Shown here: piece after piece, positions 6,641 to 37,321 of the stretch
Numbering within the stretch: the stretch's first letter is position 1
Layout of the letters: the number at the start of each line of letters is the position of its first letter
Source of the DNA: a virus
Taxonomy: Duplodnaviria; Heunggongvirae; Uroviricota; Caudoviricetes
Reading direction: 5' to 3' (one strand)
Virus record (IMG/VR): IMGVR_UViG_3300028534_000019
Coordinates: 31,091 to 95,090 of that record
Length of the DNA: 64,000 nt
Notes under the pieces: model-generated
Told to the model about the DNA's origin: nothing
The model's database searches: none
Seen by the model: only the letters and a program-made list of their open reading frames with translations
Made by a program: the position numbers and the translations under genes

Positions 6641-6708
6641 TTTTAAGTTTCATTTAAGTTTAATATGTTATAATTTTACATATCAAAAGACAAAAAGGAT
6701 TTAAAATG
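6641..6708 (+). promoter_or_regulatory. promoter-leader cassette (extended -10 TGTTATAAT at 6666-6674, AAAAAGGA RBS); near-identical copy at 36837..36904
   Basis: A 66-nt stretch repeated with one mismatch upstream of two unrelated genes. Host sigma70-like extended -10. Confidence 0.6.
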
Positions 6709-6954
6709 TCACAAATTAATTTCAAAAAAGTTTCTTACTATGTAGTTTCAATTATGGTATTATTTTCTTTAATAGCAATATTATCAAAACCATCACAAAT
6801 TGAGATAGATGTAAAATCAGGTACTAAAACTCTAACTTGTGAATTTGCTGATGGATGGAGAGAAATAGAACCTGAAAAAGTTGTTGGGTTTAATGATGAA
6901 AATGGATATTGGACTTTTACAAATGGTTATGCTAAAAATTGTGAGGTTAGATAG
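6706..6954 (+). CDS. small membrane-anchored protein (N-terminal TM helix)
   Basis: 82-aa ORF with a hydrophobic N-terminus YYVVSIMVLFSLIAIL. Confidence 0.45.
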   Translation: MSQINFKKVSYYVVSIMVLFSLIAILSKPSQIEIDVKSGTKTLTCEFADGWREIEPEKVVGFNDENGYWTFTNGYAKNCEVR

Positions 6955-7157
6955 TGTTTGTTGATAAAATTTTAGAAAATGGTGTAGAGTGTGTTTTTAT
7001 TACACACTCCAACAAAATAAGAAAGGCATATAGATATAAAAATATTATTTGGAAAATATATGCTAGTGGTGGTTATTCTGAAGTTTTTGAAAGTGAAATT
7101 CAATTCTCAGGAACAAGAGAAGAAGCAAAACAGAAATATCCTGAATTATTTTTTTAA
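6954..7157 (+). CDS. small protein with C-terminal ...KYPELFF tail
   Basis: 67-aa ORF. Member of the recurrent YPE-x-x-F C-terminal set. Confidence 0.45.
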   Translation: MFVDKILENGVECVFITHSNKIRKAYRYKNIIWKIYASGGYSEVFESEIQFSGTREEAKQKYPELFF

Positions 7158-7166
7158 AGGTTAGAT

Positions 7167-7463
7167 ATGGATTTAGATAAAATAAGATTAATAGAAACAA
7201 ATAGTGCTTTAGGTTATATGGAAGTAGCATACCTAATACAAATAAATGAAAAAGAAATGCTTTGTGTGTATTCAAATGAAGAAGGATATGTAGGTGACCA
7301 TTCTTGGGTGGTTGGTGAAGTGTATGATATGTTTGAATATGAGAGTGATTATGATGAAGTAATTAATGATAAGAAAGAAATGGTATTAAAAGATTCTCCT
7401 CTATATGGTGATTTTTTATTTGACTTTTTCTTAAAACATCTAATTAAGAATAAACTATGTTAG
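7167..7463 (+). CDS. hypothetical acidic protein
   Basis: 98-aa ORF. Confidence 0.4.
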   Translation: MDLDKIRLIETNSALGYMEVAYLIQINEKEMLCVYSNEEGYVGDHSWVVGEVYDMFEYESDYDEVINDKKEMVLKDSPLYGDFLFDFFLKHLIKNKLC

Positions 7464-8191
7464 ACTATATATCTATATTAGCTGGTGGTTCTTGTAAATT
7501 TAATTGTGAATTTTGTGTTGGTAATTCTATAAGAGAAAATATCACACCTCATTATAGTTCAAAAATCAAAGGTTTTTTAGAATGTTATGCTGATAGAACA
7601 CAATTACTTTCAGTTTCAGGTGATACTTCAGACCCATCATTAATAAGTGAAACAATATTTATTCCTGTTGAAGCAAAAGAGTATAATAAAGATATAAAAG
7701 TTAGCATACATACAAGGGATATATATTTTACTGAAAAAGCAATGGATTATGGTTATGATAAAATTGTTTTAAGTATTGATGAAACACTTTCAGAAAATGA
7801 TTATCAAACCTTAGTAAATTATTATTACCACTATGGTTATAATATTAGATTAAGTTTTGTTTTAACATCATCTAATTTTTGGATTATTGATGAATGGAAA
7901 AAAGATTTTCCAGCATTATTTGATATGGAATTAACAATAAGACCTGATGTATTTGAAAAAGATGAGGTTTTTAGAAAACATATTTTTTTAGAAACATTTC
8001 TTGGTATAGATGGAGATTGGCAAAATATAGAGCAATATAAAAATGAATATGGTGCTATTGTTTTAGAAAAGTACCCTAATGTTTGGTATTGGGATTATAA
8101 TGTTACTAATAAAAATCTTGATGTTTTATATCTTTTTAGTAATGGTGACATAAAAAATAATTGTAAGTGGGAAAATTTATATGAAAATTAG
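7457..8191 (+). CDS. radical SAM domain protein
   Basis: N-terminal CKFNCEFC (CX3CX2C 4Fe-4S motif) preceded by a Gly-rich AGGS. Downstream SVSGDTSDP is a GGEP-like SAM-binding motif. Confidence 0.65.
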   Translation: MLDYISILAGGSCKFNCEFCVGNSIRENITPHYSSKIKGFLECYADRTQLLSVSGDTSDPSLISETIFIPVEAKEYNKDIKVSIHTRDIYFTEKAMDYGYDKIVLSIDETLSENDYQTLVNYYYHYGYNIRLSFVLTSSNFWIIDEWKKDFPALFDMELTIRPDVFEKDEVFRKHIFLETFLGIDGDWQNIEQYKNEYGAIVLEKYPNVWYWDYNVTNKNLDVLYLFSNGDIKNNCKWENLYEN

Positions 8192-8423
8192 ATTAATAGA
8201 TTATAAAGAAGAAAGTTTTGATTTTCCTTACCCACCAAATTATGGTATGGATTTAGCAAAAATAAAAATAATGGGTAGTACTTTAGATATAGATAAGAAA
8301 CTATCTAAACATCTTGCTGAGTATAATTATTTTATGTATAAGGGTATGAAGATATTTTTTGAAGATTTAAACAATGACTCAAAAAAGAAAATGTATTCAG
8401 AATACCCTGAATATTACTTTTAG
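8181..8423 (+). CDS. small protein with C-terminal ...EYPEYYF tail
   Basis: 80-aa ORF. Member of the YPE-tail set. Confidence 0.45.
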   Translation: MKIRLIDYKEESFDFPYPPNYGMDLAKIKIMGSTLDIDKKLSKHLAEYNYFMYKGMKIFFEDLNNDSKKKMYSEYPEYYF

Positions 8424-8438
8424 TGATTAGGGGATTAT

Positions 8439-8795
8439 ATGAGTTTAGAAAGTACAGTGGCTTCACAGTCAATACACCCAGGAACATATGAAGTACATTG
8501 GGAAAATACATTCGATACAAAAGAAATAGTTAGTACAATAGAAATAAAACAAACTATATATTCTAGTAATCAATTAAAAAAAGTTCTTAAAAAATTATTA
8601 AAAAATTTTGATAAATTAAATAGTGAAATAAAATTAATAGAACCATCATATAATAATACTGAAGAAAAAATTAATAGAACATTTGCTATAATTGATATGA
8701 ATAATGAATATGAGATTAATAAACTAATTTCAGAAGGGTATTCTTTAAAAGAGATACACCAAGGTAAATTTATATTATACAAAAGGATTATATAA
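8439..8795 (+). CDS. hypothetical protein
   Basis: 118-aa ORF. Confidence 0.4.
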   Translation: MSLESTVASQSIHPGTYEVHWENTFDTKEIVSTIEIKQTIYSSNQLKKVLKKLLKNFDKLNSEIKLIEPSYNNTEEKINRTFAIIDMNNEYEINKLISEGYSLKEIHQGKFILYKRII

Positions 8796-9316
8796 TGGTT
8801 TTAAATTTTTATGGCGGGCCGGGTATTGGTAAAAGTACAAAAGCATCAGAGTTATTTTTTAGATGTAAACAACAAAACTTACAGGTTGAATTAATACACG
8901 AGTTTGCTAAAGATATGGTTTATTCTCAATCTATGGAAATATTGAAAGACCAATATTATGTAGGTGCTAATCAACATCATAGGGTGTGGAGAGTTCATAA
9001 CTATTACTTACAACAAGGTTTTAAAGAGGATGAATTTCTTATAATAACTGATAGTCCTATTTTGTTGGGTGCGGCTTATACTGATGATGATAAATTAAGA
9101 GATTTTATTTTTGAAACTTCAGAAAGATATAATAATATTAATATTATGCTAACAAGAAAATTTAATTACCAAGAAGAGGGAAGAAACCAAGATTTAAAAG
9201 GTGCTATTGAGATTGATAAAAAAGTTTTAGATTTATTAAATAAAACTTCTTATATAGAAACAAATGATACAGATAAAATTTTATCTCTAATTAAGGAAAA
9301 AATGAGTACAATATAA
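8795..9316 (+). CDS. P-loop NTPase / small-molecule kinase (NadR-RNK or AAA_28-like)
   Basis: Walker A GGPGIGKST at the N-terminus and IITDSP Walker-B-like. The layout resembles ribosylnicotinamide/nucleotide kinases. Exact substrate is not inferable. Confidence 0.5.
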   Translation: MVLNFYGGPGIGKSTKASELFFRCKQQNLQVELIHEFAKDMVYSQSMEILKDQYYVGANQHHRVWRVHNYYLQQGFKEDEFLIITDSPILLGAAYTDDDKLRDFIFETSERYNNINIMLTRKFNYQEEGRNQDLKGAIEIDKKVLDLLNKTSYIETNDTDKILSLIKEKMSTI

Positions 9317-9335
9317 ATATTAAAAAGGAGATAAA

Positions 9336-9914
9336 ATGACACTTGAAACATTTGCTGTTGAGTATAATAACTTAAAAATAGAAAAAGTATATATAAATTC
9401 ACACACATTAGAATCAGTAAAAAAAAGATTTAATATAGATTTAAAAATATCAGACCTAAAATCTGATATTTCTTTATCTATTGCTTTTCAAAAATATAAA
9501 AAGAATTTTACAGTAAATGATTTTAAGTTTGTTATCTTTATAAATGATATTGTACTTGTATTAAATATATATGAAAAAAATAATAAGTTTTATGGTAAAG
9601 TACTAACAGCATTATCACAAAAACAATTTGAATTAAGCAAAAATTTTTATCTTGGTAGTATTTTTGGTAATTTTGAGTGTACTATAAAAGAATATGCTTA
9701 TGAAGAAGTTTATTTTAATAATAGTTTTGAAAATATAAAAAAATCACTAAATGATTACAAACAATTACCAATATCACTAGATATTGCAACAAGTGATAGT
9801 GATATTAAAAGATTGAGAAAAGCAAACAGAACTGTTGATGTACCTTATATAAAAGGTTATTTTATAAAAGTTGTTGATGGTATTGATTATCTTATTATAG
9901 GTAGTAAAAAATAA
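9336..9914 (+). CDS. hypothetical protein
   Basis: 192-aa ORF. Confidence 0.45.
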   Translation: MTLETFAVEYNNLKIEKVYINSHTLESVKKRFNIDLKISDLKSDISLSIAFQKYKKNFTVNDFKFVIFINDIVLVLNIYEKNNKFYGKVLTALSQKQFELSKNFYLGSIFGNFECTIKEYAYEEVYFNNSFENIKKSLNDYKQLPISLDIATSDSDIKRLRKANRTVDVPYIKGYFIKVVDGIDYLIIGSKK

Positions 9915-9931
9915 GTATATGGAGGGTTAAT

Positions 9932-10387
9932 ATGAATAAACAAAAGTTTTATTTTAATAGTGAACATTTTGAATATGCTATTAATGACATTAAAAATAGA
10001 GTCCTATTGAATGTTAAAAAAGATGGTTTACAGATTGTTTCAGTGTTTAAGGATGGTTTACCTTTGGGTGTAAGGTTATCAAATGAATTTAATACAGGGT
10101 TGAGTATTATAAATTATGAAAAGTTTAGCTCAAATTCTGATAGTGTAACATTGCTTAAAGATGATGGTTTAAGAGGTGCTACAAATATATTAATTGTAAG
10201 TGACTTAGTACAAGATAAAAAGGGTTTTGAAAAAATTGTAAAATATATTAAAGAAAAATATGATAAAGAACCTATTATATACACTTTATTTGGTGACCCT
10301 TTGGAAAATAATACTAGATGGAATTTTACATTTAAAGAAAATGGACAGAAAATTCAATTCATTCCTTGGGTTGGAATGGATGTATAA
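9932..10387 (+). CDS. hypothetical protein, weak phosphoribosyltransferase-like motif
   Basis: NILIVSDLVQDKKGF loosely resembles the type-I PRT motif (hhhVDDhhDTGgT). Weak call. Confidence 0.3.
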   Translation: MNKQKFYFNSEHFEYAINDIKNRVLLNVKKDGLQIVSVFKDGLPLGVRLSNEFNTGLSIINYEKFSSNSDSVTLLKDDGLRGATNILIVSDLVQDKKGFEKIVKYIKEKYDKEPIIYTLFGDPLENNTRWNFTFKENGQKIQFIPWVGMDV

Positions 10388-10411
10388 ATAATTCTAAAAT
10401 AGGAGAAAGAA

Positions 10412-10999
10412 ATGAAAAAATTTAGTGAATATATGAGTGAAAAAGCACTTGTAGAAGAAATGGAAGATAAGATAGGTTTAATGTTATATATGGCAGAAAA
10501 AAGTGATATTATAGCTGAATCTTATGATTTTGAAAATTTAACAGAAAGCCAAAGAATTGTACTTGAAGAAGGTGTAAATGATTGGTTAAACAAAGTTGGT
10601 CTTAAATTACATAAAACAAAAGGTATTATTGATTATTTAGCTGATTTTACTAAAGGTACAGGTAAAGTTCTTATGTCAGCAATTAAAGGTGATAAAGAGG
10701 CTGTTAAAGAACAACTTAAAAATGTTAAAAAAGAAGAAGTTTTAGATTTCTTACTTAAATTAGATATGGCTACATTACATATTGTTACCGGCCCGATACA
10801 CTTAATTGATGCTGTTACAGGTTGGGATTTAATGGCTAATGTTAAAGCAGTAGCTAAAACAGCAACTGATAAACTTAAAGAATTTTATCAAGCAATGAAA
10901 AAAGTAAAAGAAACAATTACAACTGTTTTACAAGGTACTAAACAAAAGAAAATGTTACAATTAGCAACAAACTTAGAAACAACAATTCCTGCACCTTAG
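10412..10999 (+). CDS. hypothetical protein
   Basis: 195-aa ORF. Confidence 0.45.
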   Translation: MKKFSEYMSEKALVEEMEDKIGLMLYMAEKSDIIAESYDFENLTESQRIVLEEGVNDWLNKVGLKLHKTKGIIDYLADFTKGTGKVLMSAIKGDKEAVKEQLKNVKKEEVLDFLLKLDMATLHIVTGPIHLIDAVTGWDLMANVKAVAKTATDKLKEFYQAMKKVKETITTVLQGTKQKKMLQLATNLETTIPAP

Positions 11000-11019
11000 A
11001 ACAAAAAAAAGGATTTTAA

Positions 11020-11538
11020 ATGCCAAAATTTGGTAAAAGAAGTAAAAGAAACTTAGAAACTTGTCATAGAGATTTAAGAATTATATGTAATGAAGCAATT
11101 AAATATTTTGATTTTTCTGTTATATATGGTATAAGAAGTGAAGAAGAACAATTTAAACTTTTTAATGAAGGCAAATCTCAACTTGATGGTATCCATAAAA
11201 AATCAAAACACCAAGGCAGAAAGTGTGAAAAACTTGATGCTGGTGTAGATGAAGAACACAAAATTTTAACAGATGAAGATGGTGATGCTATTGCTTCTTT
11301 TGCTGTTGATTTAATGCCTTACTATAAAGGTTTCAATCCTTTTACAAATGAGTCAGGAACTAAACTTTTTTATTACCAAGCAGGATTAATAATGGGGATA
11401 GCCGCTAGACTTTATGAAGAGGGAAAAATAAAACATACTTTAAGATGGGGTGGAAATTGGGATAATGATATGGACTTTTTCGGAGATTCTCATTTCTTTG
11501 ATTTACCACACTTTGAATTAGTAATACCTAAAAAATAG
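11020..11538 (+). CDS. peptidase M15-like (VanY / L-Ala-D-Glu peptidase fold) candidate cell-wall hydrolase
   Basis: TCHRDL...GIRSEEEQ...SKHQ...AVDL arrangement resembles the M15 Zn-binding H/D/H scaffold. Moderate call. Confidence 0.4.
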   Translation: MPKFGKRSKRNLETCHRDLRIICNEAIKYFDFSVIYGIRSEEEQFKLFNEGKSQLDGIHKKSKHQGRKCEKLDAGVDEEHKILTDEDGDAIASFAVDLMPYYKGFNPFTNESGTKLFYYQAGLIMGIAARLYEEGKIKHTLRWGGNWDNDMDFFGDSHFFDLPHFELVIPKK

Positions 11539-12089: not shown

Positions 12090-12099
12090 AGGTTTTATT

Positions 12100-13872: not shown

Positions 13873-13925
13873 AAATTAAGTATTTTTACTGTATAATAAA
13901 ATCTATTAAAAATAAAAGGTTATAT

Positions 13926-14552
13926 ATGAGAAAGAAATTTAATGAAGATAAGAACAAAACTTATGAGAGTAAAGAACACTCTTTACATAAAAAGAAGATT
14001 GTAAAAAATCAAGACTATACAAAATTTAGGTTTTTTATAGGAACTTTTGATAATCAAACACCTAAGTTTCATTTAATATTAAATGATTTATATGATTCTA
14101 ATGAAAAAGATGAATTAGAATTAAGAATTATGTCACCAGTTGGATTGGTTATTGAATGTCAGCAAGTTGTGAATATAATGAATAACAAATTTAATGGTAG
14201 AACAACAGCATATATTGAAAGCCACGCTAGTTCAGCAGGTGCTATTGTTTTTGCTAATGCTGATAAAAGAGTTATATATGAAAATTCAAGAATAATGTTT
14301 CACAACTATTCAGGTGGTTATGGTGGTAAATTTCAAGATATTAAAGATAGATTAGATTTTGATGAAAAACATATTATTTCTTTTTTGAGTGTTGCTAAAC
14401 AATTCTTAAATAAAAAAGAATGGAAACAAATGGTAAATGGAAAAAACTTTTGGTTTGATGCTTCTGATATGTTAAAAAGAAATATAGCAACTCATATCAT
14501 AGTAGATGGTAAAGAGATGACTAAGAAAGAATATAAAAAATATAAAAAATAA
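13926..14552 (+). CDS. ClpP-like serine protease (candidate prohead protease)
   Basis: HASSAGAIVFANA (ClpP active-site Ser region), RIMFHNYSGG (catalytic His region). Adjacent to the terminase. Confidence 0.7.
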   Translation: MRKKFNEDKNKTYESKEHSLHKKKIVKNQDYTKFRFFIGTFDNQTPKFHLILNDLYDSNEKDELELRIMSPVGLVIECQQVVNIMNNKFNGRTTAYIESHASSAGAIVFANADKRVIYENSRIMFHNYSGGYGGKFQDIKDRLDFDEKHIISFLSVAKQFLNKKEWKQMVNGKNFWFDASDMLKRNIATHIIVDGKEMTKKEYKKYKK

Positions 14553-15754: not shown

Positions 15755-15830
15755 TCTATGTTCCCACAATAAAATTTTTAAAAAATCAATAATAAACATA
15801 CTATTTTTATTTTACTTTAAGCATATAGTA

Positions 15831-15867
15831 GCTATAATACTACATATAAAACATAAAAGGATTAGAA
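15831..15867 (+). promoter_or_regulatory. promoter-leader cassette GCTATAATACTACATATAAAACATAAAAGGATTA, identical 34-nt copy at 32565..32598
   Basis: Extended -10 plus RBS cassette directly before the ATG. Exact repeat in front of two different genes. Confidence 0.6.
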
Positions 15868-16212
15868 ATGGCAACAAGAAGTACAATTTGGATAGAAAAT
15901 GAAGATAAAAGTTTTGAAGGTATTTATGCTCATTGGGATGGATATTTATCACATAATGGTAGAATACTTTTAAATAACTATAATTCAGAAGAAAAAGCAA
16001 GAGAACTTATTGCTAAGGGTAATATTTCAGTTTTAGATGAAACTATTGACACTTGTAGATTTTATGATGAAGAGGGTTATAAATCAAGTTCTGATGATTT
16101 AACTGATTATCACGAAGAGTATCTATATCTTTTCAAAGATGGTAAATGGTTTGTATCAGAAGATGCTAAAAATTTTGTTGAATTAACAGAAAAACTTATA
16201 GGAGAAGAGTAA
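15868..16212 (+). CDS. hypothetical protein
   Basis: 114-aa ORF. Confidence 0.45.
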   Translation: MATRSTIWIENEDKSFEGIYAHWDGYLSHNGRILLNNYNSEEKARELIAKGNISVLDETIDTCRFYDEEGYKSSSDDLTDYHEEYLYLFKDGKWFVSEDAKNFVELTEKLIGEE

Positions 16213-18569: not shown

Positions 18570-18639
18570 TAAGAAAAAATTAAATAAAAATATTATATAA
18601 TTAAGAATTAAAACATTTAAAACACAAAGGAGATAATTT

Positions 18640-20490
18640 ATGGCAGTTATTGGTATAGATTTAGGAACGACAAATAGTGCTGTTTCAGTTTATGAAGTAG
18701 GGGAATTTAAAATTATTCCTAATGCTGAGGGTAAAAATACAACACCTAGTATTGTAGCATTTACAGATAAAGGGGATGTATTAGTAGGGGAATCAGCAAA
18801 AAGACAAGCAGTCACAAACCCTGAAAAAACTATTGAAGCAATTAAAAGAATTATGGGTATGCAATTTAATGAACCTAGATGTAAAGAGGCTCAAGAAAAA
18901 GTACAATATAAAATTGTAGATAAAAATGGTTTGGCCGCTGTTGATGTTGATGGTAAGATTTATACACCACAAGAAATTTCAGCTAAAATCCTTACAAAAC
19001 TAAAAGATGATGCAGAAGCATTTATTGGTAAAGAAGTTACAGATGCTGTAATTACAGTTCCAGCATACTTTAATGATGCTCAGAGAAAGGCGACACAAGA
19101 GGCAGGCGTTATTGCAGGGCTTAATGTACTAAGAATTATTAATGAACCTACTTCGGCCGCTCTTGCTTATGGTTTGGACAAAAAAGGTGAGGAAAATATT
19201 CTTGTTTATGATTTTGGTGGTGGTACTTTTGATGTATCTGTATTAGAAATTGGAGATGGTACTTTTGAAGTTCTTTCAACTGATGGTAATGCTTTCTTAG
19301 GTGGTAAAGACTTTGACCAAATTTTAGTTAATTATATTGCTGAATATTTTAAAGAGAAACAGGGTGTTGATTTAAGAAATGATAAAATGGCACTTCAAAG
19401 ATTATATGATGCTTCAGAAAATGCTAAAAAAGAGTTATCAAGTGTTGTAGAAACTGAAATTAACTTACCATTTATTACTATGACAGAAGCCGGCCCGCAG
19501 CATCTTGTTTTAAAAATTTCAAGAGGTAAATTTGAGGGGTTAGTACAAAATCTTGTAGATGAAACTATTGAACATATTACAACAGCATTACAAGACGCTG
19601 GTTTAAGTGTAGATGATATTAGTGAATTGATTATGGTTGGTGGCTCAACAAGAATACCTTTAGTACAAGAGGCAGTTTCAAAGTATTTTAAAGGTAAAAC
19701 TCTTAATAAATCTGTTAATCCTGATGAAGTTGTAGCCGCTGGTGCTTCAATTCAAGGTGGTGTATTAACAGGAGATGTAAAAGATGTTCTTCTTCTTGAT
19801 GTTACACCATTATCACTTGGTATTGAAACTATGGGTGGTATTGCTACTAAAATCATCCCAAAAGGTACAACTATTCCTGTTAAAAAATCAGAAATCTTTA
19901 GTACAGCAGTTGATAATCAACCAGCAGTTAGTATTGTAGTAGTACAAGGTGAAGCAAAATTAGCAGAAGATAATAAATCTTTAGGACAATTTAATCTTGA
20001 GGGTATAACACCAGCTAAAAAAGGTGTACCACAAATTGAAGTTAATTTTGATGTTGATTCTAATGGTGTTTTGAGTGTATCAGCTATTGATAAAGGAACA
20101 GGTAAAGAACAGAAAATAACAATTACAGGTTCGACAGGTTTAAGTGAAGAAGAAATTAGAAAGATGATTGATGATGCTGAAAAACAAAATCAAGAAAAGG
20201 CTGAAAAAATTAAAGCAATTGAAGCAAAAAATGAATTGGATGCTACTCTTTCAAGAATTAAAAACTTTAATGATGAAGAAAAAAATGAAGTGCTATCAGC
20301 TAAAATTTCTGATGTTGAAGAATATGTAAAAGAAGATAGAACAGCAGAAGAAATTAGAAAAATTAGAGATGAACTTGAAGAAGTTTATTTAAAAGCATTT
20401 GAAGAGAAATCAAAAAGAAATGAAGGTGCTGAGGTAAAAGAAAGCACTGAAAATAATGATGATGTTATTGATGCTGAAATTGAAGAATAA
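18640..20490 (+). CDS. dnaK: Hsp70 chaperone DnaK homolog (full NBD + SBD + lid)
   Basis: [26 protein letters not shown] and the substrate-binding domain are all canonical. Confidence 0.95.
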
Positions 20491-20501: not shown

Positions 20502-21305
20502 TTGAAAAAATTATATAAAATTCTTGAAATTGAAGAAACTTCTACAACAGTAGAAATAAAAAAAGCATATAGAAAATTAGCTAAAAAATACCACCCTGAT
20601 GTTTGTAAAGAAGAGGGTGGTGAAGATAAGTTTAAAGAAATTAATAGAGCATATGAAGTTCTAAGCAATCCACAAGAAAAACAAAAGTATGATAGATTTG
20701 GTGATGAAATGTATGAAAAAATGGGGTCAGGTGGTGGAAGACCTAATCCAAATGCTGATGAGTTTGCAGAAGCAATGGCATCATTTTTCAACCAAAAGGG
20801 AAATCCCCGACAAGGTAATCCTTTTGGTATGGGTGGTAATCCTTTTATTCATACAACAATTCAAGCATATATTTCGATAGAAGATTTATTTAAAGGTACT
20901 TCTATACAATTACAAGATGGTACTAAAGTAAAAATACCACCTAGAACAATACCGGGTAGTAGGGTAAGAGTTAAAGGCAAAGGTATGTCAGATGGTAAAA
21001 ATACAGGAGATTTATTTATTATCATAACACCAAAAAATAATGATAAAGAATTTGTTGAGAATGATACTATTATAAAGATTATCAAAATTGATTTAGTTAG
21101 TATGATTTTTGGAAATGAAATAAAATATAATCATTATGGTAAAGATTTAATTGTTACTGTTCCAAAAAATACAAAGCCCGGTGACTTTGTACAAATTCCC
21201 AATCAGGGCTTAGGTACTCAGGGTTCATTAATTTTACATTTAGATTTAGAATTACCAAAAGCAGAAGATTTAGATGAAGAAAAAGTAAAAGAATTATTTA
21301 ATTAA
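20502..21305 (+). CDS. DnaJ-like J-domain co-chaperone (type II, no Zn finger), TTG start
   Basis: J-domain YKILEI...AYRKLAKKYHPDV...YEVLSNPQEKQKYD. Gly-rich linker and a DnaJ C-terminal domain. AAGAGGAAAAA RBS before the TTG. Confidence 0.85.
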   Translation: MKKLYKILEIEETSTTVEIKKAYRKLAKKYHPDVCKEEGGEDKFKEINRAYEVLSNPQEKQKYDRFGDEMYEKMGSGGGRPNPNADEFAEAMASFFNQKGNPRQGNPFGMGGNPFIHTTIQAYISIEDLFKGTSIQLQDGTKVKIPPRTIPGSRVRVKGKGMSDGKNTGDLFIIITPKNNDKEFVENDTIIKIIKIDLVSMIFGNEIKYNHYGKDLIVTVPKNTKPGDFVQIPNQGLGTQGSLILHLDLELPKAEDLDEEKVKELFN

Positions 21306-21364
21306 TATACAATTAAGGTTTCTTTTGCTATAATTTCATCATATATAAACTAAAAGGATTCAAA

Positions 21365-21769
21365 ATGGCAAAAGAAAAAAGTTATGGGGTTGCTCCTTAT
21401 TTAATTATAAATGGGCAATATTATATATTGTTAAATAAAACATCAGAACATAGTAGATACAATTTCTTCAAAGGTAAAATTGAAGAGGGTGAAACTATTG
21501 CTCAATGTGCCAAAAGAGAATTTTGGGAAGAAACAGGTGTAGAAGTTGATGAGAGAGATTTTGAAGAATATTTTTTCCAAAAGTCTTCTAAAAAAGATGT
21601 TGGTATTTTTTTAATTAATTGGTCTAAATATATTAATAAAAAATTTCAATTTCAAAAAAGAGAAATTTGGGCTTCTTATTGGGTAGAGGTTGATGATGTT
21701 CAAACATCCAAAAACCAAAAAGAAATTGTTGATTCTATTGAATCTTTTTTTAAAAATAAATCTGAGTAA
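21365..21769 (+). CDS. Nudix hydrolase
   Basis: Nudix box GKIEEGETIAQCAKREFWEETGV (GX5EX7REUXEEXGU). Confidence 0.8.
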   Translation: MAKEKSYGVAPYLIINGQYYILLNKTSEHSRYNFFKGKIEEGETIAQCAKREFWEETGVEVDERDFEEYFFQKSSKKDVGIFLINWSKYINKKFQFQKREIWASYWVEVDDVQTSKNQKEIVDSIESFFKNKSE

Positions 21770-24380: not shown

Positions 24381-24447
24381 TTTTAATTTTTAATTTTCTT
24401 TTAATATTAAAATGCTATAATTACATAATTAAAAAAGAAGGATATTT

Positions 24448-25548
24448 ATGTTAGTTCAAAATAAAAAAGTTCCAAAAGAAACATTAGAGTTATTGGACTC
24501 TAAAATAGAAGAATTTGAAAAAAATACAAATTCAACTGTTTTATATATTACAATTACAGGTTCTGTTCTTTATGGTACTGATAATGAAAATAGTGATTTA
24601 GATTTTAAAGGTATTTTTATGCCTAATCTAAAAGAAGTGCTTATTGGTAATACACCTAGTGCTTTTGTTTTTAATTCAAATACAAAAGATAAAAACTCTT
24701 CTGATGATATTGATTTAACATTACACCCTGTAAATGACTTCTTTAATCATCTTAGAAAATCTGAAACAGGTGCTGTTGATTTACTTTTTAGTATGTTTAG
24801 AGAAGATACTATTGTTTTTGATGATGGTATTTTCACGAACTTTATGAAGAAAAATTATCAAAAGTTTAGAAATTCTAATATGAAAAGTTTTATCGGTTAT
24901 GCTGTTGGTCAAACTAAAAAATTTGGGATTAAAGGTGCTAGATATGAAGAGTTAGATGTTTTTTATAAAGATTGTGTTAATTATTTTAATCTTGCTCCAA
25001 AAGAAAATAAATTAGGTGAATATTGGGATTTTCTTGAACTAAAAGCCCAAGGTAAAAAATATATTAAGTTTACAAAAGCAGAAGGTGCTAGAAGAAATGA
25101 TGGTAGTAGTAATATCATTGATTATATTTCTGTTCTTGGTAAACTATATCATAAAGATGTAACAGTAGGTTATTTTTTAGAAAGAGTTTCTAAATTTTAT
25201 AATCAATTTGGTAATAGAACTAAAACAGTAGCTAAAACTGAATCAAAAACAGATTGGAAAGCAATGAGCCACGCCCTTAGAGTAGCTATGGAAGTTAAAG
25301 AGTTACTTCAATTTGGTTTTATTAAATTTCCATTGACTTATGCTGATGAGATTAAAGAAGTTAAATTTGGTAACAGAGAAGAACAAGAAACATTAGATAA
25401 AATTAGAGATGTATTGGGTGAAGTTGATACAATATTAGAAAATATTGATAAAGATAACTTTCCTTGTGAAATGAGTGAAGAATTACTTAAAAAATTAAAA
25501 TGGGAAGTAATTCTTCTATATAAAGAGTTTTTAGATTTAGGTTTTTAA
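24448..25548 (+). CDS. nucleotidyltransferase-fold protein (Pol-beta / CD-NTase-like GS...D.D motif)
   Basis: ITGSVLYGTDNENSDLDFKGIF is the [GS]x9-13 Dh[DE]h signature. A third acidic DIDLT lies downstream. 366 aa. Confidence 0.55.
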   Translation: MLVQNKKVPKETLELLDSKIEEFEKNTNSTVLYITITGSVLYGTDNENSDLDFKGIFMPNLKEVLIGNTPSAFVFNSNTKDKNSSDDIDLTLHPVNDFFNHLRKSETGAVDLLFSMFREDTIVFDDGIFTNFMKKNYQKFRNSNMKSFIGYAVGQTKKFGIKGARYEELDVFYKDCVNYFNLAPKENKLGEYWDFLELKAQGKKYIKFTKAEGARRNDGSSNIIDYISVLGKLYHKDVTVGYFLERVSKFYNQFGNRTKTVAKTESKTDWKAMSHALRVAMEVKELLQFGFIKFPLTYADEIKEVKFGNREEQETLDKIRDVLGEVDTILENIDKDNFPCEMSEELLKKLKWEVILLYKEFLDLGF

Positions 25549-26602: not shown

Positions 26603-26664
26603 CACATAAAAATTAAGTAATATTACTATATAATATGACTTATTAAATATAATAAAGGAAAAAA

Positions 26665-27576
26665 ATGGAAGAACAAATAGCGATTGATTTAGGCTATTCA
26701 ACATCAAAAGTTGCTTATGCTGATAAAATAGCAAAATTCCCAACTGCTGTTTCTTTTGCTACTGATGTAGGTACATCATATGGTGAAGGGAATATTTATG
26801 ACTTTGAGGGAGATAAGTATTATGTGGGTAGTGAAGCCGCTGATGCTGAGGCTTTTACAACTATGGATTTTAAATTTTTATATAAATTTGCTCCTCTTCT
26901 TATCTATCATATTTTAAGTAAATTTGATAAAGCAGAACTTGAAAAACCTATTGTTGTAAAAACAGGATTGGCAATTGTTGATTGGCATAAAAAAGATGAT
27001 TTTATTGAAAGAATTTCAAAAATTGAAGTGAATGGGCAAACTGTTGAAACAACACCCATTCTTATTCCTCAAGGTGCTGGATGTGCTGTTGATTGGGTTT
27101 CATCAGATAATGATGGAGAATGGCCGGACAATCTTACAGTAGTTGATATTGGTTATAATACTATTAACCTTATATCATTTTTAGAGGGTAAACCAATTAG
27201 AAAAAATATGAAAAGTTACCCAGGACACGGTGTTTCTAGTATAATTAAACCTTTTACTAGTTATCTTGAAAATACTTTTGGTACAACATTTTCAGAACAA
27301 GAAGCAATTAAATTTTTTGTTAAAGGTACTTTTAAATATAATGGTGAAGACCAACCTAAAGTATCAGAAAAAATTACAGAATTAAAATCACAATTTGTTA
27401 AAAAAATGTTTCAATCTGTTTTAGTTTCTGATAAAAAACTTCTTGCTATGTCAGATGTAGTGCTTATTGCTGGTGGTGGTGCTTATTTACTTCAAGATAT
27501 TCCATTCCCGCCAAATGTTGAGTTTGTTGATTCTCCTTATGAGTTCAGTAATACTCGTGGTTATTTAATTTCATAA
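26665..27576 (+). CDS. actin-like ATPase of the ParM/StbA/Alp family
   Basis: Phosphate-1 IAIDLGYSTSKVA, phosphate-2 VVDIGYNTINL, adenosine motif LIAGGGA. 303 aa. Confidence 0.75.
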   Translation: MEEQIAIDLGYSTSKVAYADKIAKFPTAVSFATDVGTSYGEGNIYDFEGDKYYVGSEAADAEAFTTMDFKFLYKFAPLLIYHILSKFDKAELEKPIVVKTGLAIVDWHKKDDFIERISKIEVNGQTVETTPILIPQGAGCAVDWVSSDNDGEWPDNLTVVDIGYNTINLISFLEGKPIRKNMKSYPGHGVSSIIKPFTSYLENTFGTTFSEQEAIKFFVKGTFKYNGEDQPKVSEKITELKSQFVKKMFQSVLVSDKKLLAMSDVVLIAGGGAYLLQDIPFPPNVEFVDSPYEFSNTRGYLIS

Positions 27577-28889: not shown

Positions 28890-28940
28890 TTAACATATTT
28901 TATGTTATAATTCTAACATAAAAATAAAAAAAGGATATTA

Positions 28941-29846
28941 ATGACATTAGAAAAAGATGGTATATCTTACGAAAAACCGATAGTAACACTATTACAAGAT
29001 ACAGGTATAGGTGTAGCTGAATATGCCGCTAGAACTTGCTATGATAGTTTTAACAATAGTGAAAACACACTAATTAAAGAAGTTAATTACCAACTTGATT
29101 CTTATATAGGTCAAGACCATTATGATGAGTCATACAAAGATGATTTAAACAATATTGAAGATTCTGAATTGCTTAGTGATTTAGCTTGGGCATATCATCA
29201 CCATTCAATTTTAGAACATTCTAATCTATCTTTCTTAATTAAAGGTACTTCAAGAGGTGTACTTCAAGAACACGCTCGACATAGAATACAAGCAATTTCA
29301 GTAAGAAGTACAAGATATACAATGAGTGGTATTATTAATGCTTTTGTTGCTAGTAAATTTCATATTGGTTCAGAATTACAGTTTTTTACTGAAAAGTTAA
29401 TGAATATGGATATGTTTGTAACTACTGATGAAATGTATCAAAAAATTGAAATAGCAGGTATTTTTGATAAACTAAATTTTCAATATAATAACTGTAATGA
29501 ATTTTATGAGATGGCAGTTGCTAAATCTAGTATGAAATTTCTTGAAGCAAATGATAATCCTTATAATGCTTATGATATTTTTGAAAAACTTCAAAAAGGT
29601 AAGAAGAAAAGAAATGTTGGAGATGCTTTTAAACATATAGTTTCAGATAACTGGAAAGTAGATATGGTAGTGACTTTTAATATTAGAAGCCTTAAAAACT
29701 ACTTTACATTAAGAGATAGTGGTGCGGCATATTTTCAAATTAAGTGGTTAGCAGAAGAAATGAAAAAAGCAACACCTATTAAATACTTAAAACTTATTGA
29801 TAAAAAATATAGAGATGTTGATGTTAAAGGAATAGATAATGATTAG
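28941..29846 (+). CDS. thyX: flavin-dependent thymidylate synthase ThyX-like
   Basis: ThyX signature RHRIQAISVRSTRY (RHR...S.R). It could be a dNMP hydroxymethylase-type variant in a base-modifying phage. Confidence 0.75.
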   Translation: MTLEKDGISYEKPIVTLLQDTGIGVAEYAARTCYDSFNNSENTLIKEVNYQLDSYIGQDHYDESYKDDLNNIEDSELLSDLAWAYHHHSILEHSNLSFLIKGTSRGVLQEHARHRIQAISVRSTRYTMSGIINAFVASKFHIGSELQFFTEKLMNMDMFVTTDEMYQKIEIAGIFDKLNFQYNNCNEFYEMAVAKSSMKFLEANDNPYNAYDIFEKLQKGKKKRNVGDAFKHIVSDNWKVDMVVTFNIRSLKNYFTLRDSGAAYFQIKWLAEEMKKATPIKYLKLIDKKYRDVDVKGIDND

Positions 29847-31217: not shown

Positions 31218-31345
31218 TTTAATAAAAGGTTAAGGTTGTATTAGCTATAATTCTACATACACAAAATAAAAGTAAAGGATTTGATATGACATAAATGTTT
31301 GTTATAGAAATTTAGATACATAATATAAAACAAAAGGAAAAAGAA

Positions 31346-32489: not shown

Positions 32490-32602
32490 CCCCTAACACA
32501 TCTACATACATATAATCACAACAACAAAACAACAAAAAATTTTAATATTACATTAAGAATATTCAGCTATAATACTACATATAAAACATAAAAGGATTAA
32601 AA

Positions 32603-32914
32603 ATGGAAGAGTTTTTAAATAAGTTTGAAAAAATAGTTGATAGTTTCCCTTTAAACCCATCATACTTTTTAGTATTGGATATAGCAAATGATGTTTCAAA
32701 TGCTATGTTAGAAGATGATAAAGAAGTTTGTAGAAATATGTTATTAAAATATATTAAAATTGAATGTAGCATAGAAACATATAATGAAAACAGAAAAGAA
32801 ATTGATAAATTAATTTCAAAAATTAAAGAAACATTGATTACACTTTGTTTAACATTTTCAAGAGATGATAGTTTTATAATGGTTGATGATAATTTAATAG
32901 ATTTAGAATTATGA
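32603..32914 (+). CDS. hypothetical protein
   Basis: 103-aa ORF driven by the repeated GCTATAAT cassette. Confidence 0.45.
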   Translation: MEEFLNKFEKIVDSFPLNPSYFLVLDIANDVSNAMLEDDKEVCRNMLLKYIKIECSIETYNENRKEIDKLISKIKETLITLCLTFSRDDSFIMVDDNLIDLEL

Positions 32915-33183
32915 TTGAAAATTATTTTGATTGGTTTTTAAATAATTCTGAAGAATTAAGTGATTTTAGGAATGATTTTTTATATACGATAATAACTATT
33001 GAAACAGCACCAAAAATGGAACTTAGTTTATTCTATGTTTTTAAAGATTTAGGTATTAATCTTGATATATCTGATATTAGTGTTAAGGTTAATAGTACAA
33101 GTTCTAGTTTAAGTGTTTCAGATAATTTAAAAGAAAAACTAAAACTCTATATAAAAGAAAAATATCCTGAAATTATATTCTAA
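32911..33183 (+). CDS. hypothetical protein ending ...KEKYPEIIF
   Basis: 90-aa ORF. Member of the YPE-tail set. Confidence 0.45.
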   Translation: MIENYFDWFLNNSEELSDFRNDFLYTIITIETAPKMELSLFYVFKDLGINLDISDISVKVNSTSSSLSVSDNLKEKLKLYIKEKYPEIIF

Positions 33184-33245
33184 TTAATTTTAATTTAAGC
33201 ATTTAATAGATATAATATCACATATAAAAGGAAAAAGGAACAAAA

Positions 33246-33461
33246 ATGAGTTTAACATATAAACAGATTACAGAACATATTTCTAAGATTAAAGAAAATA
33301 TTTCTATTCTTGAAGATAGACTTGATACTGAATGTAAAAGTGCTGAGTCTAATAGTTGTATTGCTAAAACATTACTAGAAGAACTTGATAAGCAAGAGAT
33401 GGCTTTAATGGTAGCTGAAGATTATTTTGATAGAGTAATAGATAGAGGAAGAGGAGATTAA
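33246..33461 (+). CDS. hypothetical small coiled-coil protein
   Basis: 71-aa ORF. Confidence 0.4.
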   Translation: MSLTYKQITEHISKIKENISILEDRLDTECKSAESNSCIAKTLLEELDKQEMALMVAEDYFDRVIDRGRGD

Positions 33462-34814: not shown

Positions 34815-35183
34815 ATGGTAAAATTTCATAAAGATTATGATTTTAAAGGTGCTGATTTAGAAATCTTAAAAAAATTTCATAAAGATAATAATATTTCAAG
34901 AGTTGTATTAGATATAGAACTTAAAAAAGATAAAATTATGTTTTATTGGATTGAATATTCTAATTTTAGATATTTGTATGTTGATGATTTAAAAAGAAGT
35001 AGAGATATTAATATTAGCATATTCAAAATTAATGATATTATTTCTATAACAAATAGAGATTTTAACACACAAATATATTTTAAAGATGATATGTTTTATA
35101 TACCAAATAATAAAAATACTGATGTATTAATTGATGAATTTATCGAAGGTGATACATCAGTGAAAATTTTAAGAAAGATTTAA
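34815..35183 (+). CDS. hypothetical protein
   Basis: 122-aa ORF. Confidence 0.4.
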   Translation: MVKFHKDYDFKGADLEILKKFHKDNNISRVVLDIELKKDKIMFYWIEYSNFRYLYVDDLKRSRDINISIFKINDIISITNRDFNTQIYFKDDMFYIPNNKNTDVLIDEFIEGDTSVKILRKI

Positions 35184-35219
35184 TATTTTTTAGTGTATAA
35201 TGTCATATAAAGGATTAAA

Positions 35220-36473
35220 ATGGCTAAGAGTAATTTAAGAAGTGAAATTATTGAGGAAACTGTTATAAATGCCTTTTCAAATAAGAGAGATGGTTTTGTA
35301 AATGAGTATGCTTTTTATTTTCATATGTTTGCTATGTGTAATATAATTGAAACAGAAGATGTAGAGTTAGCAGGTGTTAATTTTATTAAAAAATGGAATT
35401 TATATATAAATCCTAAAGAGTTTCAAAAATATTCACTTAATCAAAGACTTGGTATAATTAAGCACGAAATGCTTCACATAATTTTTAACCATTTAGTAAG
35501 AATGGAAAACAAAGAAAAAGAAGAATGGAATTTAGCTACTGATTGTGCTATTAATCAAATGATTAGAAGTGCTGATTTACCTAAAGAAAGAGTAGATACA
35601 AAAAGTCTAAGTGAATATTTGGGTGTTGATGTACCTACTAATCAAAGTGCTGATTATTATTATGATTTAATTATGAAAAATAAAAAACAACAAAATAAAT
35701 GTGGTGGCAGTTCATCAGGTGGTTGTCCACAACAAGGTGATGGTAGTGGTTCTGATGAAAGTGATGGTTTAGGTACATTAGATGACCATAATAAATGGGA
35801 AGAGTCGGAAAGTATGGATGGTATAGAAGAACTTATTGAATCTTCTGTTAAAGATATGGTTTCAAAAGCCCAAGACAAAAACAGAGGTCTAACACCACAA
35901 GAACTTAATGAAATTATTGAGATTATTTTTGGTAAATCTGTTGTTAATTGGAAAAGTGTTTTAAGAAATATTGTTTCTAATAGAAGAGTTAATAAAAGAT
36001 ATACAATTCAAAAAAGGAATAGAAGATTCCCAAAAAGAATAGAAATTAGAGGTACAACAAAAGAGAAAAAATTTGATATTGTTGTTATACTTGATATTTC
36101 AGGTAGTATGAATGATAGTGAAATTCAAGATGGTTTAAATGAAATTAAAGCAATTGCTAAATTAACAAAATCTAGTATTAAGATAATTCAAGTCGATACA
36201 ACTGTTAAAGAAGTTCAAGAGTTTACAGCAAAGACAAAAACATTTAATAGACTTGGTTGTGGTGGTACAATGATGTATCCAGCACTTCAATATATAAAAG
36301 ATAACAAAATAGATATGGATTGTGGCATTTTGATTTCAGATATGATGATTGAAAGTTTAGATACTTGGGAACAAAAAGGTTTAGCACCAAAATGTAAATT
36401 TATCTTTTTGAATACTAGTAACCACTCACTAAAAACAACAACAAGAAAAAACTATATGTTTTTTGATTTATAA
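35220..36473 (+). CDS. VWA-domain protein with N-terminal HExxH metallopeptidase-like domain (CobT/DUF2201-like partner of MoxR ATPase)
   Basis: KHEMLHIIFNH (HExxH). Gly/Ser-rich linker. VWA MIDAS VVILDISGSMND...GGT. Confidence 0.7.
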   Translation: MAKSNLRSEIIEETVINAFSNKRDGFVNEYAFYFHMFAMCNIIETEDVELAGVNFIKKWNLYINPKEFQKYSLNQRLGIIKHEMLHIIFNHLVRMENKEKEEWNLATDCAINQMIRSADLPKERVDTKSLSEYLGVDVPTNQSADYYYDLIMKNKKQQNKCGGSSSGGCPQQGDGSGSDESDGLGTLDDHNKWEESESMDGIEELIESSVKDMVSKAQDKNRGLTPQELNEIIEIIFGKSVVNWKSVLRNIVSNRRVNKRYTIQKRNRRFPKRIEIRGTTKEKKFDIVVILDISGSMNDSEIQDGLNEIKAIAKLTKSSIKIIQVDTTVKEVQEFTAKTKTFNRLGCGGTMMYPALQYIKDNKIDMDCGILISDMMIESLDTWEQKGLAPKCKFIFLNTSNHSLKTTTRKNYMFFDL

Positions 36474-36485
36474 AAAGGAAATAAA

Positions 36486-36833
36486 ATGGAATATTTATAT
36501 ATAATTTTAATTGGTTATGCTTTTAATTTTGCTGTTGAAATTATTTGGACAATACTTACAATTATTGTAACCACTGGTTCTATAATACAAGACCCAAAGA
36601 GTATGTTAGAACTTAAAAAATTAGAATCTTTAACAGCTAGATATAAATTGTTAAATAAAGATATACCCTTTAGTAAAAAAAGCACTGAGAAAATAGCTTC
36701 GGCTTTTCCTTTTGCTTCAATAGTTGGTATGATTCTATTAACATATAAAATTAAACAAAATAATGGTTTAGTTGGTTATATTGAGAGTGAAAATAAAAGA
36801 TTTGAAGAAATAATAAAAGAGCAAAAAGGTTAA
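36486..36833 (+). CDS. small membrane protein
   Basis: 115 aa with two hydrophobic segments. Confidence 0.45.
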   Translation: MEYLYIILIGYAFNFAVEIIWTILTIIVTTGSIIQDPKSMLELKKLESLTARYKLLNKDIPFSKKSTEKIASAFPFASIVGMILLTYKIKQNNGLVGYIESENKRFEEIIKEQKG

Positions 36834-36901
36834 ATTTTTTAAGTTTCATTTAAGTCTAATATGTTATAATTTTACATATCAAAAGACAAAAAGGATTTAA
36901 A

Positions 36902-37321
36902 ATGATTTTAATCATAGATACATTATTTACAGAAAGTGTTGCTTTAACAGTTATTCAAGAAAAAGAGAATGAAAAAAGAGTTAAAGAAGTTAATTATAAA
37001 GATGTTAAAAAAGAAATTGAAAATAACACTTTTAATATTTGTAATTTAAAAGATGATGTTATAAGATTTATTAAAATAAATGATGTTCCTGCTGATGTTT
37101 TTGAAAGTTTTAAAGAGTATTTAAGAGGTTGTTTATTTGAATTAACAGTTAAAAACCTTAAAAAAGGTTTTGAAGATACTTTGAAAATACAAGAAGTTAC
37201 TAAATCAATTAATGATTTAGATATTAAAATTTCTATTGCTGATAATGTTTTTGAATTAGGACAATTATCAATAGCATTAGATTATTATAAAAATGAATTA
37301 GATAAAATAAAAGGGTTATAA
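36902..37321 (+). CDS. hypothetical protein
   Basis: 139-aa ORF behind the second copy of the 66-nt promoter cassette. Confidence 0.45.
   Translation: MILIIDTLFTESVALTVIQEKENEKRVKEVNYKDVKKEIENNTFNICNLKDDVIRFIKINDVPADVFESFKEYLRGCLFELTVKNLKKGFEDTLKIQEVTKSINDLDIKISIADNVFELGQLSIALDYYKNELDKIKGL

Follow-up and report, generated by a model that had tools for sequence, protein, structure and literature searches.

In phage T4, early promoters and middle promoters are used by the host RNA polymerase and are conserved over an unusually long sequence, and the spacing between the Mot box and the -10 element is 11 to 13 bp. The Mot box, commonly given as (a/t)(a/t)(a/t)TGCTT(t/c)A, is centred at -30 (PMC4122927). 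Promoter-early stem-loop elements (PeSLs) of T4-like phages comprise a sigma70-like early promoter and a stem-loop terminator, extend from stop codon to ATG, and are conserved over about 100 bp; they lie in hyperplastic regions, indels between close relatives end in them, and mini-circles have been detected by inverse PCR (PMC2839356; PMC4122927). Homologies of under 50 bp suffice for T4-type recombination, and morons of lambdoid phages, discussed in the same paper, are accessory genes that bring their own promoter (PMC2839356). The sigma70 consensus of Campylobacter jejuni (Woesten 1998, as quoted in PMC3824568) consists of a -35 element, TTTAAGTnTT, a -16 element, TTTTTTG, and a -10 element, TATAAT. 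Here we analysed a 64,000-nt stretch of a distant T4-like myovirus (positions 31,091 to 95,090 of IMG/VR record IMGVR_UViG_3300028534_000019; hereafter, the window), in which near-identical intergenic sequences, called cassettes, recur in front of genes. The repeats are copies of a compact promoter and ribosome-binding-site module placed ahead of many unrelated genes. Judged from sequence, the modules are probably early or middle promoter-leaders for the host RNA polymerase, and homologous recombination or gene conversion would recently have copied some of their variants from one intergenic site to another.

Alignment of all promoter-like intergenic gaps yielded about 20 plus-strand modules with a common layout. 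In the upstream part, a TTAA(G/T) box lies 10 to 11 nt ahead of TATAAT, and roughly half of the sites have another TTAA(G/T) box exactly 11 nt farther upstream; in the downstream part, ACATA follows 3 to 4 nt past the -10 element, and an A-rich leader ends in AAAGGA or AAGGA, 5 to 8 nt before the start codon. In most sites the start codon follows the -10 element at 26 to 31 nt, the Shine-Dalgarno (SD) spacing is uniform, and the -10 element is sometimes extended (TGn); it reads TGT-TATAAT in cassettes A1 and A2 and AGC-TATAAT in cassette B. The combination TTAAG-N10/11-TATAAT was found 14 times in the window against 1.1 expected, with 13 of the 14 on the plus strand and 12 within the 4,812 non-coding bases that make up 7.5% of the window (binomial P of about 1e-11 by hand calculation). 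Similarly, TATAAT-N3-ACATA was found 8 times against 0.5 expected, and the double-box arrangement TTAA-N7-TTAA-N11/12-TATAAT 9 times against 0.18 expected, all nine being plus-strand and intergenic. A single-box subclass with an A-tract (AAAAATTAAGTA), referred to as class I, is present at 1137, 13873, 26610, 39375, and 48819.

TATAAT alone occurred 121 and 119 times on the two strands, and a generic sigma70 scan of the window gave fewer matches than in shuffled sequences, such a scan being uninformative in DNA of 26% GC. No canonical TTGAC-N17-19-TATAAT or TTGACA element was present in the window. A preliminary description of this DNA had proposed promoter-leader modules reused before unrelated genes, and this promoter reading is well supported; each module has an extended or plain -10, a short leader, and an AAAGGA ribosome-binding site, and the modules stand before unrelated accessory or early-type genes. 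The same description had also reported the absence of a -35 element; this is correct for TTGACA but does not hold for the TTAA(G/T) box, which is conserved at a fixed 10 to 11 nt from the -10 element and is accompanied in half of the promoters by the second box, at the enrichments given above.

Two of the modules recur almost exactly within the window. Pair A (positions 6641 to 6708 and 36837 to 36904) is a 68-nt match with a single mismatch (T at 6660 and C at 36856), which extends by 1 base to 6640/36836, giving 69 nt with one mismatch, and occupies the entire intergenic gap, beginning with the base that follows the upstream TAA stop and reaching the ATG of the next gene. Pair B contains an exact 35-nt block, 15830 to 15864 and 32565 to 32599, and extends to 42 nt with one mismatch, reaching ATGG; the identity between copies B1 and B2 is confined to the segment from 3 nt before the -10 element through ATGG, and the upstream halves differ. 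Both repeats had been noted earlier, and the single mismatch of pair A and the exactness of pair B were borne out, but pair A had been given as 66 nt and pair B had been started one base too late, at 15831, a register in which 25 of 34 bases mismatch. The longest exact blocks, 48 nt in pair A and 35 nt in pair B, lie far beyond chance, since the longest exact direct repeats in 10 Markov-1 simulated windows were 17 to 19 nt. Moreover, the same repeat junctions were found in ENA assembly ERZ27262685, which is 99.75 to 99.94% identical to the window over 12 to 17 kb, and in Logan contigs of SRR8439170, which are 100% identical, and their recurrence in three independent assemblies indicates that the repeats are not an assembly artefact. 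At 26% GC, TATAAT and A/T-rich matches are common, and the generic scan was not enriched, which would favor chance similarity; given the block lengths, the recurring junctions, and the limitation of the motif to one strand and to intergenic DNA, an origin of the repeats in chance or misassembly is extremely improbable. Segmental duplication or paralogy was also rejected as their source, as the window has just three paralogue pairs, none of them beside a cassette, and the genes behind the copies are unrelated to one another (see below).

A scan for cassette A covering IMG/VR and JGI metagenomes recovered four further distinct copies, 95 to 99% identical over about 66 nt and each before an unrelated open reading frame (ORF), together with two copies of a variant, A'; cassette B had no match in IMG/VR. 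These extra A and A' copies were on three contigs of sample Ga0256843, which also contained a third B copy (B3), bringing the totals to at least six copies for the A family, two for A', and three for B. No mutual similarity was found among the ten genes that follow copies of A, A', or B, and the four window genes among those behind A or B copies had no Pfam match. The loci of the extra copies shared no protein homologue with the window and carried T4 core genes missing from it, namely, those for the major capsid protein gp23, portal, prohead protease, a Dda-like helicase, and ligase. Their proteins occurred in the same sources as the window proteins, and the longest contigs (58.8 and 31.7 kb for the extra-copy proteins and 100.9 kb for the window proteins) sum to about 191 kb. 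In addition, a Logan contig of the window phage (SRR8439170) starts at 32577 and ends at 36865, and its start fits a B3-type copy in the same run. On the basis of the complementary core genes, the co-occurrence, the summed length, and this contig boundary, the extra-copy contigs probably belong to the same genome of about 190 kb. The contig in question (L008) thus begins inside B2 and ends inside A2, which would be where the run of 31-mers shared with B3 ends and that shared with the A family begins; the cassettes fragment short-k (k = 31) assemblies of this phage.

The history of the cassettes was assessed from their positions of identity. Outside the anchor, the 20 window promoter regions had a mean ungapped identity of 47% (standard deviation, 8%), compared with 93% for A1 and A2 in the same comparison. 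Promoters of relatives (59 to 73% identical in large terminase [TerL], 47% in DUF2201, and 66 to 88% in Hsp70) keep the consensus positions only, and within 6- to 15-kb pieces of these relatives no cassette pair above about 75% identity was found. Because non-consensus positions vary freely elsewhere, the near-identity within the A, A', and B subfamilies points to recent common ancestry and not to selection; the non-consensus positions common to the A copies are the spacer and the TCAAAAGACAAAA leader. Furthermore, the blocks of identity end differently from copy to copy: in A5 the distal box is missing and the SD-to-ATG spacer is different, A' has in common with A only the 3' half of the leader, and the identity of B1 and B3 starts at TATAAT and, ending with ATGGCAACA, takes in three codons of unrelated proteins. 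Homologous recombination or gene conversion acting on partly similar promoters would be expected to leave such a mosaic. A family of small ORFs sharing their first codons (ATGAAAACATTTAAAGAA, "MKTFKE...") and SD regions, at 8199 to 13561 of the related contig L020, is another case of a reused gene 5' end.

The near-identity could instead be maintained by selection if the leaders (ACAUAUCAAAAGACAAAAAGGAUUUAAAAUG in A and ACAUAUAAAACAUAAAAGGAUUA in B) were operators for a common translational repressor or small RNA (RegA-like) controlling a co-regulated regulon. Conservation of the B family essentially in the transcribed leader, from the -10 element to ATG, with differing upstream halves, is consistent with this, as is the 3' leader half common to A and A'. 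The leaders are unstructured, however, the identity of A also covers the non-transcribed spacer and the upstream boxes, the corresponding positions vary without constraint in other promoters of the window and in orthologous promoters of relatives, and no repressor was identified, so we consider the operator explanation improbable.

Under the preferred reading, of host-polymerase promoter-leaders copied by recombination, each module comprises, in order, the upstream stop codon, one or two TTAA(G/T) boxes phased 11 bp, TATAAT, an ACATA initiation region, an unstructured A-rich leader, AAAGGA, and ATG, and the sigma70 RNA polymerase of a Campylobacterota-type host would initiate about 7 nt past the -10 element. 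Early or middle operons of one to about eight genes would be transcribed from the modules, and late genes from TATAAATA promoters. Exchange between promoter regions, by homologous recombination or gene conversion, would have spread or homogenised the copies, and T4-type recombination-driven replication would ease this. Copying is suggested by the ragged, copy-specific block ends, by the three B1 codons carried into the B3 ORF, and by vestigial SD-ATG mini-ORFs: the sequences M-T-stop (31286 to 31294) and M-L-F-stop (39418 to 39429) directly follow a cassette SD and look like vestigial starts left where a cassette was placed without a following ORF. Copied cassettes would also be potential crossover points for swapping promoter-led ORFan modules. 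Recombinational reuse of the cassettes is thus well supported as history and not demonstrated as an ongoing shuffling mechanism.

Comparison with the PeSLs of RB49/phi1, T4/PST, and KVP40/nt-1 (PMC2839356; PMC4122927) revealed many common features. In both cases, multicopy conserved intergenic modules of a T4-like genome, with a lineage-specific consensus, run from a stop codon through a sigma70-type promoter and SD to ATG and lie beside ORFans in variable regions; in the window phage, the promoter and SD fill the stop-to-ATG gap, and the conserved copies are numerous (about 20 promoters and at least 6 A copies). In contrast to PeSLs, the window cassettes have no stem-loop or terminator, no recombinant junction was observed at them, and their TTAA(G/T) boxes lie at about -28 and about -39, where PeSLs have TTGACA/TTTACW at -35. 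When the promoter gaps were folded with ViennaRNA, minimum free energy (MFE) z-scores were about 0 for A1, A2, and B1; complementarity across the -10 element was no higher than in swapped controls (p = 0.45). A hairpin was present only at B2, 70 nt upstream and outside the repeat. The cassettes are therefore not PeSLs in the strict sense, as no stem-loop is present, but they act like the promoter half of a PeSL and might be used as crossover sites. They resemble the morons of lambdoid phages in providing accessory genes with their own promoter and differ from them in that morons have no shared flanking cassette and usually have a terminator.

Gene content behind the promoters was compared with that of related contigs (L009, L014, and L019 to L021) between the anchors TerL, neck, DUF2201, Metallophos, PolyA_pol, and Hsp70, and the ORFs right behind the promoters differed. 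A class-I promoter and ClpP module stands between TerL and the neck gene in the window and is absent there in L019; the 114-amino-acid (aa) B1 gene precedes the homologue of the gene at 16212 in the window, and in L019 a promoter directly precedes that homologue; and L009 has entirely different ORFans between DUF2201 and Metallophos. These differences in promoter-led ORFans among relatives make cassette-mediated gene shuffling plausible. Close strains (99.75 to 100% identity) are collinear, with no indel at any cassette and none of 44 differences inside cassettes, and relatives jump from 100% to 73% (TerL) and 47 to 48% (DUF2201) identity, which is too distant for junction mapping. Separately, of 37 differences from the ENA strain found over 16.6 kb of the window, 30 fall within 41451 to 41701, in the final 250 nt of the second Hsp70 gene and at the end of the ENA contig; this cluster looks like a recombination patch or strain-variable segment.

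It is possible, though doubtful, that the cassettes are PeSL-type mobile elements, preferred crossover sites at which promoter and ORFan modules are excised as mini-circles and inserted elsewhere, driving gene-content differences. Their span from stop codon to ATG and multiple copies, the differing promoter-led ORFs at conserved anchors, and the mosaic relationships of A with A' and among B1, B2, and B3, together with the short homology that T4-type recombination needs (PMC2839356), are in favor of this. On the other hand, the defining stem-loop is absent, the only close genomes are collinear without an indel at cassettes, gene turnover was seen only at 47 to 73% amino acid identity, where any mechanism could explain it, and no circular or recombinant junction contig was seen. 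The earlier suggestion of PeSL-like shuffling is plausible and unproven, and PeSL membership fails: the copies must have a recent common origin, variable ORFans lie behind promoters in relatives, and gene content at cassette boundaries differs in distant relatives, but no cassette-bounded indel could be shown and close strains are collinear.

The motif was also looked for in other phages and in bacterial DNA. In the first 50 kb of Campylobacter phage CP220 (Firehammervirus, NC_027997), TTAAG-N10/11-TATAAT was found 13 times against 0.9 expected and the double-box arrangement 9 times against 0.13 expected, 30 to 50 nt ahead of annotated starts, and near-identical pairs precede unrelated genes at 3575 to 3620 and 3845 to 3890 (96%) and at 12610 to 12649 and 12919 to 12958 (100%). 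CP220 and the window have the same tripartite TTAA-N7-TTAA-N11/12-TATAAT arrangement, short leader, and AAAGGAG, at comparable enrichment; the CP220 leaders, however, have no ACATATAAA segment and are shorter by about 10 nt, and there is no nucleotide similarity to the window genome (TerL identity, about 39%). A description of the TTAAG-N11-TATAAT motif in Campylobacter phages was not found in the literature searched. The motif was absent from 50 kb of Vibrio phage phiKT1024, the closest TerL relative, and from bacterial loci obtained incidentally rather than by a dedicated search.

Compared with C. jejuni sigma70 promoters, the phage modules have the same -10 hexamer, their TTTAAGT box equals the host -35 consensus in sequence, and cassette A has its distal box no more than 2 nt from where the -35 stands in the construct of PMC3824568; in contrast, the best-conserved phage box is one helical turn nearer the -10 element, at 10 to 11 nt, and the T-rich -16 element is not conserved. 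The host consensus places TTTAAGTnTT about 19 nt upstream of the -10 element; cassette A agrees with this in its distal box (TTTAAGTTTC, with 21 nt between TTAAG and TATAAT), and the distal box occurs as TTAAT or TTAAG in nine promoters, while the best-conserved box remains the proximal one. The tag of the transfer-messenger RNA (tmRNA) encoded in the window begins ANNTDY, which resembles the tags of Helicobacter and Campylobacter. Together, the enrichment in CP220, the absence from the Vibrio phage, and the tag point to a Campylobacterota host. The preliminary comparison to Campylobacter was accordingly a good guess, given the CP220 enrichment, the box sequence, and the tag. A scan of GTDB genomes with the phage DnaK for the host returned unrelated metagenome-assembled genomes and one mis-binned related phage contig (L014, in a "Cloacimonadota" genome). 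At 4563 to 7702 of that contig, Hsp70 matches fall in two pieces about 1.3 kb apart, residues about 1 to 221 at 88% and 223 to 615 at 66% identity, and the gap is possibly an intein, intron, or homing-endonuclease insertion.

The modules share with T4 early and middle promoters their long conserved sequence for the host polymerase, a separate late class (TATAAATA), and a Mot-like spacing, and differ in the sequence of the box. Identity with T4 MotA-dependent middle promoters was rejected, as TTAA(G/T) is no Mot box and only the spacing is similar. The proximal box might nevertheless be the site of a phage-encoded activator with a MotA/AsiA-like function, at middle-type promoters of a T4-like lineage related to Campylobacter phages. 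The distance of 10 to 11 bp to the -10 element, similar to that of the Mot box, the position one helical turn nearer the -10 element than the C. jejuni -35 implied by the PMC3824568 construct, the presence of two subclasses (A-tract with single box versus double box), and the occurrence of the motif 0 times in C. jejuni plasmid pTet versus 13 to 14 times per 50 to 64 kb in the phages are compatible with an activator. Against it, the box sequence is the published host consensus TTTAAGTnTT, no MotA/AsiA Pfam match was found among the called genes of the window, which is about one-third of the presumed genome, pTet is a weak test with few promoters, and phage early promoters are typically "super-consensus" host promoters; an activator of this kind therefore appears unlikely. 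By analogy, and with still less probability, the box would be the target of an unrecognised phage transcription factor, a MotA/AsiA analogue in Campylobacterota phages, and a related possibility of the same low order is that the A and B cassettes are actively mobilised. If the activator reading were true, the A-tract single-box and the double-box classes would be different temporal classes.

Several points weigh against host-polymerase promoter-leaders that were copied by recombination. Copies of a very strong promoter and translation-initiation region could diverge slowly if strong selection acts on them, no recombinant junction was observed, and the assignment of the extra A and B copies to the same genome is inferred rather than proven. 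Moreover, pTet (45 kb; a small sample with few promoters) contained no TTAAG-N10/11-TATAAT, by which the proximal box is perhaps not a general host promoter element.

The positions of the modules in the window, including the cassettes and the late promoter sites, are listed below. The preliminary description had named "looser versions" of the cassettes at a series of genes, and every one of those sites has a TATAAT, a TTAA[GACT] box 10 to 11 nt upstream, and an AAGGA-type SD 5 to 8 nt before a start; the "gene" at 39452, however, is a tmRNA and not a protein gene, and the promoter for the gene at 31346 sits 94 nt upstream, at 31246, with a two-codon ORF in between. The tmRNA site is accordingly a protein-type cassette serving an RNA gene.

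Table. Promoter modules, cassettes, and late promoter sites of the window, with the genes that follow them
Feature	Position	Strand	Elements	Followed by
Class-I promoter	1140..1161	+	AAAAATTAAGTA-N-TATAAT, single box after A-tract	183-nt structured leader, gene 32 (1345-2358)
Double-box promoter + leader	6104..6168	+	TTAAT/TTAAT	157-aa ORF
Cassette A1	6640..6708	+	TTAAG 6643 (distal), TTAAG 6654 (proximal), TGT-TATAAT 6669-6674, ACATAT, leader, AAGGA 6695, ATG 6706	82-aa ORFan, then small ORFs
Class-I promoter + leader	13876..13928	+		ClpP-like 13926-14552
Cassette B1	15817..15870	+	TTAAG 15817, AGC-TATAAT 15833-15838, leader, AAGGA 15857, ATG 15868	114-aa "MATR..YAHWDGY" family protein, 126-aa ORF, SmpB, others
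Promoter + leader	18580..18642	+	TTAAA box	DnaK-like, DnaJ-like genes
Double-box promoter + leader	21302..21367	+		NUDIX 21365-21769
Double-box promoter	24390..24450	+	62-66% like cassette A	RlaP-like 24448-25548
Class-I promoter + leader	26613..26667	+		Actin-like (ALP_N) gene
Promoter + leader	28890..28943	+	TTAAC box, TGT-TATAAT	ThyX
Double-box promoter + leader + SD	31219..31294	+		2-codon ORF ATG ACA TAA 31286-31294, degenerate second leader, gene 31346
Cassette B2	32542..32605	+	Boxes 32542 and 32553, AGC-TATAAT 32568, AAGGA 32592, ATG 32603	103-aa ORFan
Double-box promoter + leader	33184..33248	+		71-aa ORF, MoxR-like AAA gene
Double-box promoter	35169..35222	+	Short leader	DUF2201 metallopeptidase/VWA gene
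Cassette A2	36836..36904	+	Same as A1 except 36856 C	139-aa ORFan, then Metallophos, 55-aa ORF, PolyA_pol
Class-I promoter	39378..39451	+	Leader retains AAGGA and 3-codon ORF 39418-39429	tmRNA gene 39452-39772
Promoter	42357..42408	+	TTAAA box, ACATATAAA leader	165-aa ORF
Class-I promoter	48822..48892	+		Second T4_baseplate paralogue
TATAAATA late sites	42924, 42946, 47940/47953, 49655, 53948, 62437, 46872(-), 3816(-), 11716, 14575

The class-I promoters at 1137, 13873, 26610, and 39375 are spaced 12,736, 12,737, and 12,765 nt apart. In a post hoc test, this was the only equally spaced quadruple among the 5,985 quadruples of 21 promoter sites, with a simulated P of about 1.5e-5 when five positions are placed at random and about 9e-4 when the five are taken from the 21 sites, also post hoc; no paralogous segments in the window explain the even spacing. 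The 114-aa family led by B1 has homologues in twelve unrelated viral contigs (33 to 59% identity), and in 10 of these 12 loci a short leader with an AAAGGA/AGGAG-type SD precedes the gene, behind a -35 of the TTGAC type and a -10 that is TATAAT or close to it, with homologues directly behind TTGACA-17-TATAAT promoters with a short leader. This lends support, from outside the clade, to the promoter function of the modules. From these surroundings, the gene appears to head a strong early-type unit in those phages, with a promoter adapted to each host.

The T4-type late promoter motif TATAAATA was found 18 to 58 nt ahead of many gene starts, including those of structural genes and of a minus-strand tail block, and 14 of its 20 occurrences in the window were intergenic or at most 80 nt upstream of a gene start. 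As these late promoters stand apart, the TATAAT-type sites form a separate, presumably early or middle class; the possibility that the cassettes are themselves T4-type late promoters was ruled out, since they carry TATAAT and the TATAAATA sites are separate. Nearly all genes of the window are on the plus strand. They encode gp32, RNase H, a T4-type large terminase (39 to 41% identical to those of phiKT1024 and the CP220 group), and, in addition, a T4 neck protein, gp15, gp19-like tube proteins, baseplate proteins, gp5, gp25, and gp6. A megablast search of INPHARED gave no nucleotide match, single-protein IMG/VR scans with TerL and with the A2 gene found no close relative, and exact look-ups of TerL (from its TTG start) and of the DnaK-like protein were not on record, which may reflect start-codon choice or strain differences.

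Other features of the window were also recorded. The phage carries a full trans-translation pair, consisting of the tmRNA (39452 to 39772, plus strand; Rfam, 90.8 bits; tag, ANNTDYTGNTVLSA), which is driven by a class-I cassette, and an SmpB homologue (16602 to 17051, plus strand; Pfam PF01668). A proteostasis set includes the ClpP-like protease (13926 to 14552), a DnaK-like Hsp70 (18640 to 20490; 767 bits), DnaJ (20502 to 21305), and a second Hsp70 paralogue (39844 to 41706), 40% identical to the first. The gene 32 leader (1162 to 1344; 183 nt) is significantly structured (MFE, -39.9; z = -2.5) and includes an 11-bp hairpin, and may function as an autoregulatory operator of the kind known from T4 gene 32. 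Small ORFs ending just before promoters (7127 to 7157, 31187 to 31217, and 33153 to 33183) share the C-terminal ...KYPE(I/L)FF*, with 77 to 81% DNA identity over 31 nt among the three, and a fourth such ORF, at about 7530 of contig L001, ends ...LYPELKF*. The ORF at 49693 to 53952 (1,419 aa) contains in-frame tandem repeats of 33 nt (50535 to 50699) and 18 nt (52847 to 52990); the version in the ENA strain is 1,395 aa, and the repeat number probably varies.

The cassettes are an ordinary phage feature in a new lineage, in the style of Campylobacter phages, and knowledge of phage genome evolution is unchanged by them. They provide a usable promoter model (TTAA-N7-TTAA-N11-TATAAT, ACATA, and AAAGGA) for an uncultured T4-like branch, which aids operon and start-codon annotation. 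In addition, they mark likely recombination points in accessory-gene regions, and the match to CP220, together with the absence from the nearest Vibrio relative, is a host-prediction signal for Campylobacterota.

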